IMG/VR virus record: IMGVR_UViG_3300038318_000232
Coordinates: 1 to 64,000 of that record
DNA from: a virus
DNA: 64,000 nt
Reading direction: 5' to 3' (one strand)
Part shown: positions 50,572 through 57,397 of the stretch, one piece after another
Numbering within the stretch: the first letter of the stretch is position 1
Layout of the letters: each line of letters starts with the position of its first letter
Made by a program: the position numbers and the translations under genes
Notes under the pieces: generated by a model
The model's database searches: none
What the model was told of the DNA's origin: nothing
What the model saw: only the letters and a program-made list of their open reading frames with translations

Positions 50572-52116
50572 TTACGCTGTCTTTTTCCGGTGATTTACCC
50601 CGCCTATCAATCCCATGAACGGCAATCCTTCTTCCAAGAGGTCAAAGTTCTTGTAAGCCAGCATCATAGCCGTTACAAGGTCGTCATGGCCGTTCTTAGA
50701 AGCGTTGCCGAAACTAATAGACTTGGTTTTCGGTGAGATTGAATACTGATAATCCTTAAATTCAAGCAGTAATGGCTCGAACTTGGGATAACTGATGCGG
50801 TGTTGCTCAATTAGCATAGCCAAGTTGTTGACCATGTTTTCCTTCTCTTTGGGAGAGAAAAATACATCTTCAACCTCCATTCCCCGCTTGGTAAGTTGGG
50901 AAGGGATAGTCTCGCCTAAGCCGGTTCTGTCCATAACGACCGGAGCATGGTTATAAATGCGTGATAGCCTCGCTATTTCATCAAACTGCTTATCCCAACC
51001 CCATCCAGACCATTGCTTAATATAAACCGTTTCGCCCCTACCGTTGCGGACCACAACCCCTGAATAGTCAATAGACTTAGCTGGGTCATAGCCAATTACA
51101 TAGGTTTCTCCCGGTTCCACCATGCCATCACCGATATAAATAGCGCATTCATCGGCATAGGGGAACATGCAATTGCCTTCGGGAAGGAACTGGCCCATAA
51201 CCTCCTGCTCGTAAATTCTGGCCGGGAAGCGGCGCTTGATGCCCTCAAGGAATTTCTTATCCTTTCGCACAAGATAAGGATTATCCCATGAGCTAAACTG
51301 CCAAGATTCCCAATCCTCATCGTAGTAAGGGGTGTCTTTTTGCCCCCACTTGAACATGTCATAATAAAACCCGAGTCCTCGTGGGGTCCCGTTTATAAGC
51401 CCCAATCCACCTTGCCCATTCGGACCACGTCCAGGGGAAGCAAGACGCATTTCAATATTTGACCAAACCTCATCAAAATTCCTTATTCGGGCTGCTTCGG
51501 TGATGAGCACTATGTCAATACCAACACCAACCAGCGAATTAGGGTCATCAGCTGAACGGACCTCAATCATGCCACCGTTGACGGTCTGAATCATCTTATC
51601 GGATTCCCAATAGTTCTCTACCCACTCCCGGGGGAAAAAGGCTTTTAACTCACGCCAAACCTGCCGGGCAAGAATGTAGGTGGGTGCTATAATCCAGCCA
51701 TGAACCGAAGGAACCATGTCAGGTCCGCGCTCTTCGCTGAGCATTTCGGCAAATTTCGTGATAAACTCCATTATCATGCAGCGGTCTTTTCCCCATCTTG
51801 CGCCAGCTGCTATGACTTTGAATCGCGCCTTACTCTCGTGGATTAACTTCTGCCCAGGATGCGGCATATAGGCTATCGTGGCCTTACTATTCCCCCTGGC
51901 TACAGCAGTTCGGCACTTATCGCAGGAATTATACTGCGTGAACTTCTCCAATTGCGGCATCCACTTCTGTTCAAAGGGCTTACCGCACTCCTTACATATA
52001 CTCAACTTGCCGCCTGAATTAGCCTCTATCTGCGTTTTAAGGCGATTATTCACCCTTTGTACGCGGTCCCGGCGCTCGCCATTGGGATTATTAAATTTGT
52101 CGCCACCTTTTGCCAT
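50572..52116 (-). CDS. terL: terminase large subunit
   Basis: Walker-A-like AAGARWGKD, size, N-terminal zinc ribbon; start ATG 52116 behind AAGGCAGGTGATCTC (the ATG at 52140 abuts a terminator hairpin). Confidence 0.85.
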   Translation of the reverse strand: MAKGGDKFNNPNGERRDRVQRVNNRLKTQIEANSGGKLSICKECGKPFEQKWMPQLEKFTQYNSCDKCRTAVARGNSKATIAYMPHPGQKLIHESKARFKVIAAGARWGKDRCMIMEFITKFAEMLSEERGPDMVPSVHGWIIAPTYILARQVWRELKAFFPREWVENYWESDKMIQTVNGGMIEVRSADDPNSLVGVGIDIVLITEAARIRNFDEVWSNIEMRLASPGRGPNGQGGLGLINGTPRGLGFYYDMFKWGQKDTPYYDEDWESWQFSSWDNPYLVRKDKKFLEGIKRRFPARIYEQEVMGQFLPEGNCMFPYADECAIYIGDGMVEPGETYVIGYDPAKSIDYSGVVVRNGRGETVYIKQWSGWGWDKQFDEIARLSRIYNHAPVVMDRTGLGETIPSQLTKRGMEVEDVFFSPKEKENMVNNLAMLIEQHRISYPKFEPLLLEFKDYQYSISPKTKSISFGNASKNGHDDLVTAMMLAYKNFDLLEEGLPFMGLIGGVNHRKKTA

Positions 52117-52140
52117 GAGATCACCTGCCTTGAAGGGCAT

Positions 52141-54589: not shown

Positions 54590-54814
54590 TTATCCCTCCT
54601 TTAAACCTGCCCTTTCATCGGCTAGATATTGGGCTTCCTTGTCACGAATGCCCATAAGCCAGAACCGGTTTTTGGTACGGCGAACCCAAACGCCTTTTGA
54701 TAAATAGTAGAGATAAGCCGTTTTTGTGATTTGTTTCAGGTTTAGTCCCTCCTTATTTCCACCGAACGAAATAGCGAAATCCTTGTTTTCAAATGAGGGG
54801 GATTTTGTAAACAT
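54590..54814 (-). CDS. hypothetical small protein (start uncertain)
   Basis: Its 3' end supplies the SD of the next ORF; the first in-frame ATG abuts tRNA-Trp. Confidence 0.3.
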   Translation of the reverse strand: MFTKSPSFENKDFAISFGGNKEGLNLKQITKTAYLYYLSKGVWVRRTKNRFWLMGIRDKEAQYLADERAGLKEG

Positions 54815-54888
54815 GGCACCGGCCAAAAGAATTGAACTTCTACCCTCAGTTTTGGAGACTGAAATGCTACCAATTACACCAGACCGGC
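54814..54888 (-). tRNA. tRNA-Trp (anticodon CCA)
   Basis: Cloverleaf by hand: anticodon arm TCAGT-CTCCAAA-ACTGA, T loop TTCAATT, encoded CCA. Confidence 0.85.
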
Positions 54889-54891
54889 ACA

Positions 54892-54965
54892 TGGTTAGGA
54901 GGGAAAGAATCGAACTTTCGCATTGCGGGTCAAAGCCGCATGTTCTACCACTGAACTACCTCCCA
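54892..54965 (-). tRNA. tRNA-Gln (anticodon TTG)
   Basis: Acceptor TGGGAGG/CCTCCTA (U1-A72), anticodon arm TGCGG-CTTTGAC-CCGCA, T arm GAAAG-TTCGATT-CTTTC, encoded CCA. Confidence 0.9.
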
Positions 54966-54966
54966 A

Positions 54967-55042
54967 TGGAGCCGAGTGGAGGAATCGAACCTCCTTATGC
55001 TCCCTTACAAGGGGAGTGACCACGCCAATGGACCAACCCGGC
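54967..55042 (-). tRNA. tRNA-Thr (anticodon TGT)
   Basis: Acceptor GCCGGGT/ACTCGGC, anticodon arm CTCCC-CTTGTAA-GGGAG, T arm GGAGG-TTCGATT-CCTCC, encoded CCA. Confidence 0.9.
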
Positions 55043-55466
55043 ACAAATACCGTTGATACAGTTCAACGGCAAAAACTTCTGTACGCTTTCTACTATGAGT
55101 AGAAGCCATCACAATATCAAAGCCCTGCCCCTCCTGCTAAATGACAAAGGGACAGGGCCGATTACCGCGCGGGGCCTGCACATGAGCAAGCCCACATCCC
55201 CGTAATTTCGCCGACTCCCGGATAGCGGGACGGTTACTCTGTGCGGGGAAATTAGATTCGCAACCTCAAGGCCGATGCTTTCCTCCCAGGTGCGTAGGCG
55301 GTTCCCTCAATGCCTTGCGCTTAACCCTGCCACTATACAGTGACCATCGGTGCGCACCCTCTCTTGGTTGCTATGCTGGCACCGCTTACACGCTGCCGTT
55401 ACTCCTTCTGCGCTTGGCAGATGAGCTATGGAGTCAAGTCTTCCGAGGAAGTACCTGCTACCGAAA
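55043..55466 (-). ncRNA. candidate large structured RNA (class unknown) directly 5' of the tRNA array
   Basis: 424 nt without an SD-preceded ORF, visibly GC-richer than flanks, many stable local hairpins (e.g. 55122-55158, 55172-55193, 55211-55233, 55085-55106, 55050-55069). Confidence 0.45.
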
Positions 55467-55958
55467 CTACGGAAACTGCTCAATTGGGGCAATAAACTTT
55501 AAGCTATCTTTGCTCCAATAAACCATGCCAGATTTACCCCAATTGGGGCTTTGATGGTTTTCGTTTTTTCGCAAAAACTCTAAAGCATTGCCAAACAATC
55601 CAGCAGGAGAATTGGCAGGAGAATCCTTTGCTTGCCCACCTTTATGCAAAAACATTAACCACACCGGCCATGGAGTACAATCGTCAACCCGGCAATAATG
55701 CCCATAATGCTTTAAGTCTATACCGGTTGTCCATCTTTGCGTATTACGATGCCAGGTAAAGGCCGTTTTATGCTTGGCTTCAATCCAAAAACACTTTTCC
55801 ATCTTAAAAACCAGCATGTCAGGTGCTATTAATTGTTCTTCCGGGGTATACAATTGCGGCCCTTTCCCGGAATCAATCTCTATCTCGTAAACAGGAAGGA
55901 CATTGTAGCCCTTCCCAATAAAATACTGCGCTATTTTGCTTTCGCCAATTTTACCCAC
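55467..55958 (-). CDS. PD-(D/E)xK superfamily nuclease
   Basis: GESKIAQYF..., APDMLVF and FWIEAKHK (D...ExK) motifs; GTG 55958, 22 nt after the methyltransferase stop. Confidence 0.65.
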   Translation of the reverse strand: MGKIGESKIAQYFIGKGYNVLPVYEIEIDSGKGPQLYTPEEQLIAPDMLVFKMEKCFWIEAKHKTAFTWHRNTQRWTTGIDLKHYGHYCRVDDCTPWPVWLMFLHKGGQAKDSPANSPAGLFGNALEFLRKNENHQSPNWGKSGMVYWSKDSLKFIAPIEQFP

Positions 55959-55980: not shown

Positions 55981-57252
55981 CTACTCACCGAGAATCGCCC
56001 CCCAGCCGAACTGCATAAAGCAGGATAGGAACTTATCAGGGTTTTCTCCAAAATAAACAACTGCCTGCCCCTGCAAAGGCGCTCCAATAGAGCCACCGGG
56101 AGTATAGAATTTAACCCGGCCTTTCGGAAACACAATTGCACTTGCTTGGCCAATAAGGGTATTAAACCAAGCGGTTTCTGTGGCATTATTCACCAAAACA
56201 ATCGCTTCCTGAATATCACCAGTCGCAAAATAATTAACCAGTTTATCACAGAACAAAGGAATTAACTCCCCCGCATATGGGGGATTCATCCAAACGCGGC
56301 CAGTCCAATCTTGTTCTAATCCGTTGTCCTCTATAGTAAATATCTGCTTCGCGCCTACTACCCTATTAGCAACTTCACTGCTGGCCGGATCTAAATCTAT
56401 ATCACCCATTACCTCCTTGGCCGCTTCTATATACGGCGAAGGTGTATACCATTCGTTGTTACCGGAATTATAGGCAACATGCGGGGTTTTCTTCTCTATG
56501 GCTTCCTTAACCGTTTTTGATTCACCGGTTGCCACTTCCTGAATAACTTGCCGCTGTACTTCGGGTTCGGCCTTCGCTAGTTCCAAAGTATCCTTCTTAG
56601 TCACCGGAATCTCATGGTTAAGAATTTGCTGTTTTACTTGGGGTGTAGTGTTTTGAGTTATAGTGTCCACGGCCCTAGTGAATTCAGCATCATTTTTGAT
56701 GGTTCGAGGAGAAACATTGTGCTGCTCAGCCAATCTTTCAGCCGTTTTAGGTTGGGTGCAATTTTTGCCTTCAACCTCGCTAAATTGGTTTATCCCTTGC
56801 TCATTAGGAATTTTCTTTTTTTCTCTCTCGTATTGCAAACCCCGAAGATAACTTTGATTCGCCGGAGTTAAATTACGTCGGCCCAATTGGTTATTTATTA
56901 TCCAGTCAATTACCTCGTCGCGGCTATCAAAATCCATCTCTATTGTTTTAAATTCAATGCCATGATCTTGGCAAATGTCATATCGGTTATGTCCATCAAT
57001 CAAAATGTGTATTTCTTCCATGGGATAAATTCCATAACCGCACTTAGGGCACTCCCAATTGCCGCCTGGTCCGAACTCAACTGCAACATCTTCGCAACAA
57101 TCACGACAATACCCAGTATCATACATTATGGGTTGCGCCCAAACTACTAGCGCATCTCGGCACCCTTCCGCAACAATGTTTTTCTCTAACTGCTCATACT
57201 CATCCACTGCCAACCGGGGAATGAGATTCCTGAACTCCTGATCAATAATCAT
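55981..57252 (-). CDS. ParB-like nuclease domain fused to phage-type DNA N6-adenine methyltransferase
   Basis: ParB box ILIDGHNRY with an inserted zinc ribbon; C-terminal VWMNPPYAGE (NPPY) methyltransferase domain. Confidence 0.85.
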   Translation of the reverse strand: MIIDQEFRNLIPRLAVDEYEQLEKNIVAEGCRDALVVWAQPIMYDTGYCRDCCEDVAVEFGPGGNWECPKCGYGIYPMEEIHILIDGHNRYDICQDHGIEFKTIEMDFDSRDEVIDWIINNQLGRRNLTPANQSYLRGLQYEREKKKIPNEQGINQFSEVEGKNCTQPKTAERLAEQHNVSPRTIKNDAEFTRAVDTITQNTTPQVKQQILNHEIPVTKKDTLELAKAEPEVQRQVIQEVATGESKTVKEAIEKKTPHVAYNSGNNEWYTPSPYIEAAKEVMGDIDLDPASSEVANRVVGAKQIFTIEDNGLEQDWTGRVWMNPPYAGELIPLFCDKLVNYFATGDIQEAIVLVNNATETAWFNTLIGQASAIVFPKGRVKFYTPGGSIGAPLQGQAVVYFGENPDKFLSCFMQFGWGAILGE

Positions 57253-57397
57253 CAATACCATCCTTTCGTATTGGTCAATCCACGATAAATGCCCGGAACA
57301 GAAGGCAGGATTTACCTCTTTTCGGCTTGCAATCACCTATTTCCGGGCATGAAAAAAGCCGCTCCCGAAAGAACGGCCTTTATCACCTTATTTATTT

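Follow-up and report, generated by a model that had tools for sequence, protein, structure and literature searches.

What occupies the 424 nucleotides (nt) between an open reading frame (ORF) and a group of three tRNA genes in a phage genome? The question is raised by positions 1 to 64,000 of the IMG/VR virus record IMGVR_UViG_3300038318_000232, the whole stretch of DNA analysed here and hereafter called the window, in which the ORF on the 5' side of the segment 55043-55466 stops at 55467. A reading made from the sequence alone had proposed that this segment encodes a large structured phage RNA. We find a modular, mosaic non-coding RNA locus on the minus strand that contains a pair of hairpins, H1-H2, belonging to a predicted small-RNA family that accompanies bacterial DUF3800 operons. 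Contigs and loci compared with the window are designated L001 onwards.

The sequence-only reading had described the segment as free of genes, dense in hairpins, richer in GC than its flanks, and on the same strand as, and directly abutting, three tRNA genes, and each of these descriptions was borne out. Stops occur in all six frames and the segment is touched only by ORFs of 50-68 amino acids (aa), while ARAGORN and Rfam both place the tRNAs on the minus strand immediately beyond it. The GC content is 54%, compared with 47% and 42% over 5 kb on either side, and reaches a maximum of 58% over 55100-55400. The five local helices that had been listed are all present exactly as written, and the minus strand folds with a minimum free energy (MFE) of -166 kcal/mol (z = -3.1, with 1 of 100 shuffles equal); the plus strand gives z = -2.1. 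By this folding model the segment appears more structured than chance, though the excess is modest. Homologous regions showed no codon-like substitution pattern: the indels among relatives are 1, 4, 1 and 2 nt long, substitutions are grouped at the tips of hairpins and within a swappable one, without codon periodicity, and the 61-aa ORF at 55307-55492 is disrupted in relative L006 by a 1-nt deletion. Together with the stops in every frame, these frameshifting indels and non-periodic substitutions rule out a coding reading, and the segment is non-coding.

One of its hairpins, H1, recurs far outside this phage. H1 consists of two stems, an outer one of 3 bp and an inner one of 5 bp, with an internal loop (1x2) between them and an apical loop that in the window measures 6 nt, and its family was defined by the pattern AGCUC-A-UCUGC-loop-GCAGA-AG-GAG or a compensated variant, to which the window hairpin conforms. 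The window has a single exact copy, even at three mismatches (0 expected by chance), and the covariance model R1, built from a 20-sequence H1 alignment, scored 46.1 bits (E=1.3e-11) on 55427-55398 and found no second copy in the window. Scanning of the collections for exact patterns only recovered exact H1 at no fewer than 24 loci in IMG/VR and at least 20 loci in a one-genome-per-species collection; identical H1 is present at a minimum of 35 loci besides the window, in phages and bacteria of many phyla. Genomes with exact H1 include those of Bacillus, Salibacterium, Eubacterium, Acidovorax, Burkholderiaceae, Pirellulaceae, Zavarzinella, Victivallales, Actinomycetes, Bdellovibrionales, Dadabacteria, Ktedonobacteraceae and Wallbacteria, and H1 is also found in Bacillus phages of the SPbeta/phi3T type. 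Across the 20 aligned sequences 100% of stem cells are paired and 5 of the 8 pairs have changes on both sides, a degree of pairing that none of 500 shuffles and no slid register matched. By this measure H1 behaves as an RNA hairpin under compensatory evolution. A hairpin at the H2 position, 3-5 nt past H1, is present in all 36 distinct members examined, each time with a different sequence, and in the window as well.

In bacteria, H1-H2 has the outline of a gene. About 6 nt upstream of the first A of AGCUCA comes the end of a sigma-70-type promoter, whose -10 hexamer ends 4-9 nt upstream of that A and is often accompanied, at 16-18 nt, by a TTGACA-like -35. H2 is followed by a U-run and usually doubles as a terminator, and the bacterial form is thus predicted to be a stand-alone gene for a small RNA of about 60-75 nt. 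This stand-alone form was not found in the window or in most phage copies, which have no -10/-35 at the right distance and, in the window, no U-run; the window copy is the embedded, phage form of the family. A DNA-level phage promoter for H1, suggested by a TTGACT just upstream, was rejected for want of a -10 at a usable distance, and an origin as an attP site or as part of an RNA gene of the host was rejected in view of the bacterial promoter and terminator and the compensatory changes in H1. Rfam returned nothing for the bacterial H1 loci (18 loci at gathering; H1 loci at E<=10), and H1-H2 is absent from Rfam 15 and from the literature searched.

The bacterial neighbourhood of the small RNA is informative. 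In 10 of 19 distinct genome loci derived from the motif, it lies tail-to-tail with a two-gene operon, one gene of which encodes a DUF3800 protein (Pfam E=4e-15; PADLOC PDC-M04A E=5e-91) and the other a partner of about 160 aa (PADLOC PDC-M04B E=9e-41); PADLOC lists this pair as the candidate defence system PDC-M04. Because these loci had come to us via the motif, we ran a reverse test on loci retrieved by homologues of the partner protein (34-54% identity) and not by the motif. Six of six distinct loci carried the promoter, an H1-type hairpin and H2/terminator in the same place, and the H1 stems of the protein-derived loci were compensated (UCAAC/GUUGA, UCCAC/GUGGA, UCUAC/GUGGA and CUUAC/GUAAG, the last with outer stem CUG/CAG). 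Both routes place H1-H2 in a putative small-RNA family that accompanies DUF3800/PDC-M04 operons. DUF3800 proteins have an RNase H-like fold and are linked to defence systems (PMC10910872, PMC13594972), and eleven unrelated RNA motifs of no known function accompany their genes, in either orientation and several with terminators (PMC5737381). At L071:1-675, a 1325-aa protein with an RVT_1 reverse-transcriptase domain is encoded immediately upstream of a PDC-M04 locus and its small RNA, an arrangement that recalls the reported DUF3800-retron association (PMC7736814).

In phages the RNA occurs without the proteins, in the company of tRNAs and other RNAs of the DUF3800 type. None of the 79 ORFs of the window matches PDC-M04 or DUF3800, and the protein pair is present in 1 of the 24 listed IMG/VR H1 loci, namely L051. 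Phage copies lack a promoter and are set in non-coding islands. In L066 (5129-5171), H1 directly follows the CCA of tRNA-Tyr and ends 17 nt before tRNA-Ser within an array of 11 tRNAs. L014 has H1 and a hairpin followed by a tRNA array that contains a drum RNA, and tRNAs lie 38-360 nt after H1 in L014, L028, L064 and the window (360 nt), the distance being 50-360 nt for L064/L065/L067, L028 and the window. A DUF3800-VIII RNA lies 100-150 nt downstream of H1 in L015/L017 and L054. Some details of these loci deserve record: the L066 hairpin takes up the greater part of a 43-nt spacer and lacks an H2 hairpin; the drum RNA of L014, a 146-kb phage contig, matches RF02958 at 62 bits (L014:5820-5927); and L051 has two H1 units 226 nt apart (1021-1050 and 1247-1276), the second of which has its own promoter, TTGATT-17-TATACT, and faces a complete DUF3800 and partner operon, a layout implying that some (pro)phages carry the whole system.

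Other phage copies lie in leaders. In SPbeta, H1 (NC_001884 59629-59655) is located between yonN and yonK, 500 nt before yonK, and a second H1 60 nt further on has a compensated stem, UGUAC/GUACA, and a terminator; the tandem copies occupy L068:3002-3091 (NC_001884 59565-59654). The primers with which Forrest et al. mapped the YonO late start are located 700-900 nt upstream of this H1, which therefore falls inside the untranslated late leader (~1.3 kb, from the YonO start site to yonK) that these authors term an unannotated non-coding RNA (PMC5467207). In L054, a close homologue, the DUF3800-VIII RNA lies about 150 nt further on. Bacillus and Salibacterium prophages carry H1 between an ArpU/sigma-like regulator and terS/terL, and in L053 and L058 H1-H2 is within the 5' untranslated region (UTR) of an ORF. 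Another conserved non-coding block, GCCUUUGCUACU...GUAGGGUGAA.C..UCACAG (L029:2060-2110, L068:2290-2340), is downstream of H1 in Bacillus prophages and about 700 nt upstream of it in SPbeta. To judge from these arrangements, such long leaders of late genes resemble RNA modules strung together in shuffled order.

The window segment is itself assembled differently from one relative to the next. Related contigs were obtained by exact-protein look-up with the DUF5662 protein; exact look-ups with a 239-aa ORF and with the 522-aa terminase gave no match, and the IMG/VR relatives reached via these two proteins were L001 and L002 only, both without the RNA. L003 and L004 are identical to the window in the compared region. 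In L006 and L009, 98% identity begins exactly at 55466 and the upstream genes differ; L007 keeps 55466-55151 at 95% identity, without tRNAs; and L005 and L008 retain only 55439-55374 and 55197-55151, the central 176 nt (55198-55373) being missing. The IMG/VR contig L013 has the entire unit, diverged, plus a 141-nt tRNA-like insertion after H2, and is without the tRNA cassette. The central domain is 95-98% identical in L006, L007 and L009 and diverged in L013, the only contig in which the IMG/VR scan and a single metagenome scan (JGI) found it; compared with about 45 unrelated H1 loci, it shared no modules above chance. Widespread occurrence is thus limited to the ~50 nt of H1-H2.

The three tRNA genes are shared by the window, L003/L004 and L006/L009; L005, L007, L008 and L013 lack them. 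In L013 the terminator hairpin runs straight into the sequence that follows tRNA-Trp in the window, and in L007 a 120-aa ORF comes after the terminator hairpin and homology is back at 54755. As 55120-54814 is absent from both contigs, the three tRNAs and a 78-nt leader constitute an inserted cassette, and the RNA unit proper therefore spans about 55466-55112. The earlier idea of a tRNA-precursor leader thus fits the last 78 nt, as the leader of the cassette. Likewise, the proposal of a large structured RNA stands insofar as the segment is non-coding and structured, and is not supported insofar as it supposed one giant RNA, in view of the 176-nt deletion, the 141-nt insertion and the loss of the cassette. 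Table 1 collects the parts of this modular and mosaic non-coding RNA locus of the minus strand.

Table 1. Parts of the non-coding segment and the adjoining tRNA genes, in the order of transcription.
Feature	Position	Strand	Remarks
Small hairpin CUUC-CUCG-GAAG just past the upstream stop codon	55440-55451	-	MFE fold
H1, 26-nt hairpin AGCUCAUCUGCC-AAGC-GCAGAAGGAG	55402-55427	-	Conserved core of a widespread small-RNA family
Linker UAAC between H1 and H2	55398-55401	-	
H2, hairpin GGCAGCG-UGUAA-GCGGUGCC, GNRA tetraloop	55378-55397	-	3' of H1
Lineage-specific central domain, ~180 nt	55194-55377	-	Comparison of relatives
Helix Ha	55345-55350 with 55272-55277	-	Long-range, central domain
Invariant hairpin of central domain	55331-55342	-	
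Variable hairpin of central domain	55292-55320	-	Unrelated sequence in L013
Sarcin-ricin-like hairpin	55192-55253	-	Sub-threshold TEG147 match
Conserved 3' block: hairpin GGGCUUGC-loop-GCAGGCCC (55172-55193), then single-stranded CGCGCGGUAAUCG	55159-55193	-	
Terminator-like hairpin, 10-bp GC-rich stem (55122-55158), U-rich tail CUUUGAUAUU	55112-55158	-	
tRNA-cassette leader: hairpins 55085-55106 and 55050-55069	55043-55111	-	
tRNA-Thr(UGU), tRNA-Gln(UUG), tRNA-Trp(CCA) cassette	54814-55042	-	ARAGORN and Rfam tRNA model

Several of these parts vary in ways that bear on their structure. At the position of the small 5' hairpin, L006/L007 (UCUC..GAGA) and L013 (CGCCC..GGGCG) have hairpins of different sequence, two pairs of which show changes on both sides (RNAalifold); it may be a 3' hairpin of the upstream gene or a 5' flank of the RNA. 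The tetraloop of H2 changes from GUAA to GAAA, and an A-U pair to G-U, in L005 and L013, while its G.G mismatch becomes a pair, A-U in L005 and G-U in L013; the window H2 has no U-run, so that transcription runs on. The conserved 3' block is kept in every variant, the short form of L005/L008 included, with an invariant stem and a variable loop (CUCAUGU; UAUC in L005; 2 nt shorter in L013). In L007 the stem of the terminator-like hairpin is preserved by three compensatory pairs (CCC/GGG to AUAU/AUAU), and its U-rich tail is present in all variants; a consensus terminator scan did not call this hairpin, the loop being 17 nt. The RNA unit probably ends here on its 3' side. A promoter-like site, TTGATA-17-CATAGT (55120-55092), agrees with consensus at 9 of 12 positions and does not exceed shuffle expectation; promoter and terminator scans of the segment as a whole were no better than shuffles.

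Within the central domain, helix Ha changes from CCGAUG/CAUCGG to CAGAUG/UAUCUG in L013, one compensatory and one wobble change. It would form a pseudoknot with a GAGG/CCUU hairpin predicted by RNAalifold, and both the MFE and the RNAalifold folds disagree with this sole covarying helix of the domain. Ha and the covariation inside the unit are suggestive, resting on effectively two independent sequences and an RNAalifold covariation term of -0.75 kcal/mol. The long-range contacts proposed in the sequence-only reading fared less well: pairing of TAATTTC with GAAATTA would contain a C.A mismatch in L006 and L013 and competes with the sarcin-ricin-like loop, and GGTGCG and CGCACC are adjoining halves of one palindrome with zero loop, which makes a hairpin impossible. 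We also noted a perfect 10-nt palindrome, GGUGCGCACC, at 55349-55358, of which L013 retains the 8-nt core GUGCGCAC with both flanks altered; a hairpin is again impossible, and a dimerisation or kissing contact could be involved.

Does the segment, or any part of it, belong to an RNA class already described? Rfam 15, searched as the earlier reading had advised, matched only the three tRNAs in the window at gathering, and the segment fits no known class, GOLLD and ROOL included. Relaxing the cut-off to E<=10, with 1.1 kb and 381 nt as queries, gave no match either to GOLLD, ROOL, raiA, HEARO, RNase P, tmRNA or any DUF3800 motif. GOLLD and ROOL RNAs resemble the segment in their occurrence in (pro)phages, their frequent tRNA neighbours and their non-coding, structured nature, but they measure ~580-800 nt and have a single conserved architecture, whereas the segment is modular and mostly lineage-restricted. 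A BLASTN search of INPHARED with the whole region found nothing. No tRNA or tRNA-like cloverleaf was called within 55043-55466 by ARAGORN or Rfam, and tmRNA and additional tRNAs were rejected on the same searches. RNase P RNA was rejected too, the k-mers GGGAGGAAAG, GGGUGCGCACC, CGCGCGGUAA and ACAGAG resembling it by eye in a non-collinear order, with no model match at E<=10. The one sub-threshold match above chance level was the Staphylococcus aureus small RNA TEG147 (RF03535), whose full model aligns with 55253-55192 at 22 bits (E=0.06) and recurs in the L013 homologue (E=0.04). The two share a long hairpin with an AGAGUA/GAAAU internal loop of the sarcin-ricin type and an apical CCC/GGG stem, and TEG147 is listed among Rfam families with the sarcin-ricin motif (PMC13085918); however, with scores of 22-23.5 bits against the 56.1 needed for gathering, the likeness amounts to a common three-dimensional motif, homology not being demonstrated. 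The 141-nt insertion of L013 (11812-11950) combines an acceptor stem of 7 bp (CGAGUGG/CCACUCG), a D-arm-like GGCGGAAUAGGUAGACGC and the T arm AGGG-UGCAAAU-CCCU with a long helix in place of the anticodon arm, and ARAGORN makes no call on it. Elsewhere in the same contig (L013:7796-7876) there is a twister-sister ribozyme (RF02681, 37 bits).

Upstream of the segment, 55466/55467 and 55981-57336 show mosaicism, with a breakpoint exactly at the stop codon. The window lineage has a Dam-type methylase and a 173-aa ORF there, and L006/L007/L009 have an MT-A70 methylase and an unrelated 162-aa ORF (BLASTP E=2.2 between the two proteins) with the same RNA after it; in L001, the gene for a homologue of the 173-aa protein (59% identity) is not followed by such an RNA. 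The name 'nuclease' given to the 173-aa ORF in the sequence-only reading derived from a motif seen by eye and found no support in Pfam, PHROGs, NCBIfam or PADLOC, and a functional link between that gene and the RNA is largely refuted by its replacement in relatives.

The window genome encodes an integrase, RecT, DnaB, an SPP1-type Dit protein and a terminase, and is temperate and siphovirus-like. The closest terminases of cultured phages are 27% identical to its own, and three proteins with a Cu_amine_oxidN1 domain suggest a Bacillota host. The H1-H2 module is placed between middle genes (the Dam methylase and the 173-aa ORF) and packaging genes (terminase, 50572-52140). Other ORFs match PAPS_reduct (Pfam) and the PADLOC models DndC, SspD, QueC and BrxP/subtilase, and two glycosyltransferases adjoin the terminase; these matches may reflect DNA-modification or anti-restriction functions. 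A 100-aa ORF at 54590-54892 overlaps tRNA-Trp, and the tRNA-free stretch of L013 has AAGGAG and an ATG further downstream; the called start is probably wrong, and the real gene, if any, shorter.

We favour the reading that phage H1-H2 is a phage-made mimic of the defence system's RNA, to which, as the best explanation of the whole, we assign a probability of roughly 0.4. The bacterial small RNA would be the RNA partner of the DUF3800 module and, in the simplest model, would hold this nuclease module silent in the manner of a type III antitoxin. Phages without the proteins would produce the RNA themselves, and this copy, a decoy or antidote, would act in trans on the DUF3800-type systems of their hosts. 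Such a copy would be expressed inside islands of non-coding RNA and tRNA, where RNase P and 3'-end processing could free it with its native 5' end. In the window, the transcript would pass H2 into the lineage-specific structured extension, the conserved hairpin and the terminator-like hairpin, just behind which the three-tRNA cassette with its own 78-nt leader was inserted; the extension may hold further decoy or scaffold modules. A broader proposal, that many phage lineages, SPbeta included, carry mimics of PDC-M04 RNAs that are released by tRNA enzymes and serve as RNA-based anti-defence, is more doubtful. If true, such mimicry would explain the variety of DUF3800 RNA motifs as arms-race diversification, with which the existence of eleven unrelated motifs would fit.

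A number of observations weigh against the mimic. In roughly half of the bacterial loci derived from the motif, the RNA is paired with other genes, among them Mrr_cat, DUF1016-like (by eye) and restriction-modification genes, and some copies lie in late regions of prophages. We found no paper on PDC-M04, which is a candidate defence system only. The small RNA is convergent to its operon, unlike the same-strand, upstream type III antitoxin, and it is single or at most a tandem double, with no repeat array. The near-invariance of H1 could mean that it binds a universal host factor and not the poorly conserved partner protein (34-54% identity). That the host of the window phage carries a DUF3800 system is an assumption; the model also leaves most of the 424 nt, the central domain, unexplained. 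More generally, we infer the decoy or antidote function from context alone. H1 also occurs in the untranslated late or packaging leaders of SPbeta, of the Bacillus ArpU-like-terS prophages and, as 5' UTRs, of L053/L058, and the SPbeta and ArpU-terS positions in particular favour a role in cis.

In such a role, the main rival to the mimic, H1-H2 would be a leader element of the late or packaging operon, bringing about put-like antitermination or the stabilisation or processing of a long transcript, and the bacterial copies would regulate read-through into the convergent operon. The siting of the window module between middle and packaging genes (terminase at 50572-52140), of SPbeta H1 about 0.7-0.9 kb past the mapped YonO late start within its untranslated leader, of the Bacillus and Salibacterium copies between the ArpU/sigma-like regulator and terS/terL, and of the L053 and L058 copies in 5' UTRs speaks for such an element, and in many phage copies H1-H2 is followed by a terminator that has to be read through for downstream genes to be expressed. 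We nevertheless judge it rather unlikely. Between its two tRNAs, the L066 hairpin would be excised from the nascent transcript; the bacterial gene, which runs from promoter to terminator, faces the 3' end of the operon, so that only antisense RNA would lie downstream; and the polymerases on which a single element would act differ greatly, the SPbeta late polymerase YonO lacking most domains of multisubunit polymerases (PMC5467207). The repeated and specific link to DUF3800 is left unexplained.

Three further explanations have less to recommend them. A new class of large ornate RNA that spans 55112-55466 (~350 nt) as one architecture and includes H1 as a domain is suggested by the GC enrichment and the z of -3.1, by the GNRA tetraloop, the sarcin-ricin-like loop and the possible pseudoknot helix Ha with its one compensatory change, by substitutions grouped in hairpin tips and the swappable hairpin and indels of non-codon length, and by the covarying hairpins, one of them terminator-like, that bound the unit. 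Yet its domains come and go independently in close relatives (the 176-nt deletion, the 141-nt insertion, the hairpin swap), the central domain is found in only one further contig (IMG/VR, JGI metagenomes), the covariation is anecdotal with about two independent sequences and a term of -0.75 kcal/mol, and Rfam offers no match, all of which makes this class improbable. Still less credible is a passive spacer made up of the 3' tail or terminators of the upstream gene and the promoter or leader of the tRNAs, with hairpins that are terminators or recombination scars: the mosaic breakpoints at the segment edges, the L006/L007 homology from exactly 55466, the inserted tRNA cassette, the terminator-like hairpins 55158-55122 and 55069-55050 and the promoter-like site 55120-55092 would suit it, but H1 is identical in dozens of unrelated phages and bacteria and evolves by compensatory changes, the central domain is conserved at 95-98% where flanking genes are replaced, and the promoter and terminator scans do no better than shuffles. 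We give almost no credence to a two-part phage system, such as a toxin-antitoxin or exclusion module, formed by the RNA and a putative PD-(D/E)XK-like 173-aa protein. The RNA directly follows the 173-aa ORF on the same strand, and bacterial copies do pair with various nuclease-type genes (DUF3800, Mrr_cat, DUF1016-like by eye); but L006/L007/L009 have the same RNA behind the unrelated 162-aa protein, the neighbour in L013 is different again, L001 has the homologous protein without such an RNA, and the 173-aa protein matches no family in four libraries.

These findings bear on a puzzle that dates from 2017, when at least 11 unrelated conserved RNA structures were found beside DUF3800 genes, their role obscure. 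H1-H2 adds a motif of unusually clean anatomy, with a promoter, an invariant hairpin, a terminator and a tail-to-tail operon, and its copy in SPbeta of B. subtilis 168 is genetically tractable. The role of DUF3800 RNAs becomes addressable, through defence with or without the RNA and through a possible RNA-based counter-defence by phages. For the window itself, the reading is corrected from one giant RNA to a modular island of non-coding RNA.

Among known phage RNAs, the put elements offer a parallel for a leader. The putL and putR RNAs of HK022 are leader RNAs of ~70 nt with two stem-loops that act on RNA polymerase and cause terminator read-through. Like them, H1-H2 is a two-stem-loop element in phage operon leaders, a likeness that is positional; unlike them, it also occurs as a terminated stand-alone gene and in tRNA arrays, the put RNAs being located immediately behind early promoters and confined to action in cis. 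The tRNA cluster of T4 includes the stable small RNAs species 1 and 2 (rnaC/rnaD), which are matured by the tRNA-processing machinery, and the L066 hairpin, right after a CCA, is similarly a non-tRNA small RNA in a phage tRNA array. In the window, though, H1 lies 360 nt upstream of the array and not inside it, and the likeness is one of position, with no sequence relation known.

For the proposed function the closest model is ToxI, the antitoxin RNA of type III toxin-antitoxin systems, a tandem repeat array upstream of its toxin gene, on the same strand, and processed by the toxin. Escape phages reportedly make a pseudo-ToxI RNA that neutralises ToxIN, as Blower et al. are said to have described in 2012 in PLoS Genet. 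In both cases a small structured RNA lies beside a nuclease-type module, and a phage copy of the RNA could, by analogy, neutralise it. The differences are that H1-H2 is single or double and convergent and not a tandem co-transcribed array, and that DUF3800 has an RNase H-like fold in place of ToxN-type endoribonucleases, the toxicity of PDC-M04 being presumed only.

The closest likeness in kind is to the DUF3800-I to -XI, drum and skipping-rope motifs (Weinberg et al. 2017, PMC5737381), short conserved RNAs that adjoin DUF3800 genes in many phyla, in either orientation, and several of which have their own Rho-independent terminator; H1-H2 behaves alike, and in phages it adjoins DUF3800-VIII and drum RNAs. 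Its UAA(C) linker fits the remark of those authors that UAA is common in DUF3800 motifs (PMC5737381). On the other side, the window copy has no promoter, terminator or DUF3800 gene and is fused to an extension of ~300 nt, and none of the Rfam 15 models for these motifs hits H1-H2 (gathering, E<=10), while the DUF3800-VIII and drum models do detect RNAs elsewhere in L014, L015, L017 and L054. As none of the motif models matches, H1-H2 would be a twelfth structure: a further, apparently undescribed DUF3800-associated RNA, present here in an embedded, extended phage form.

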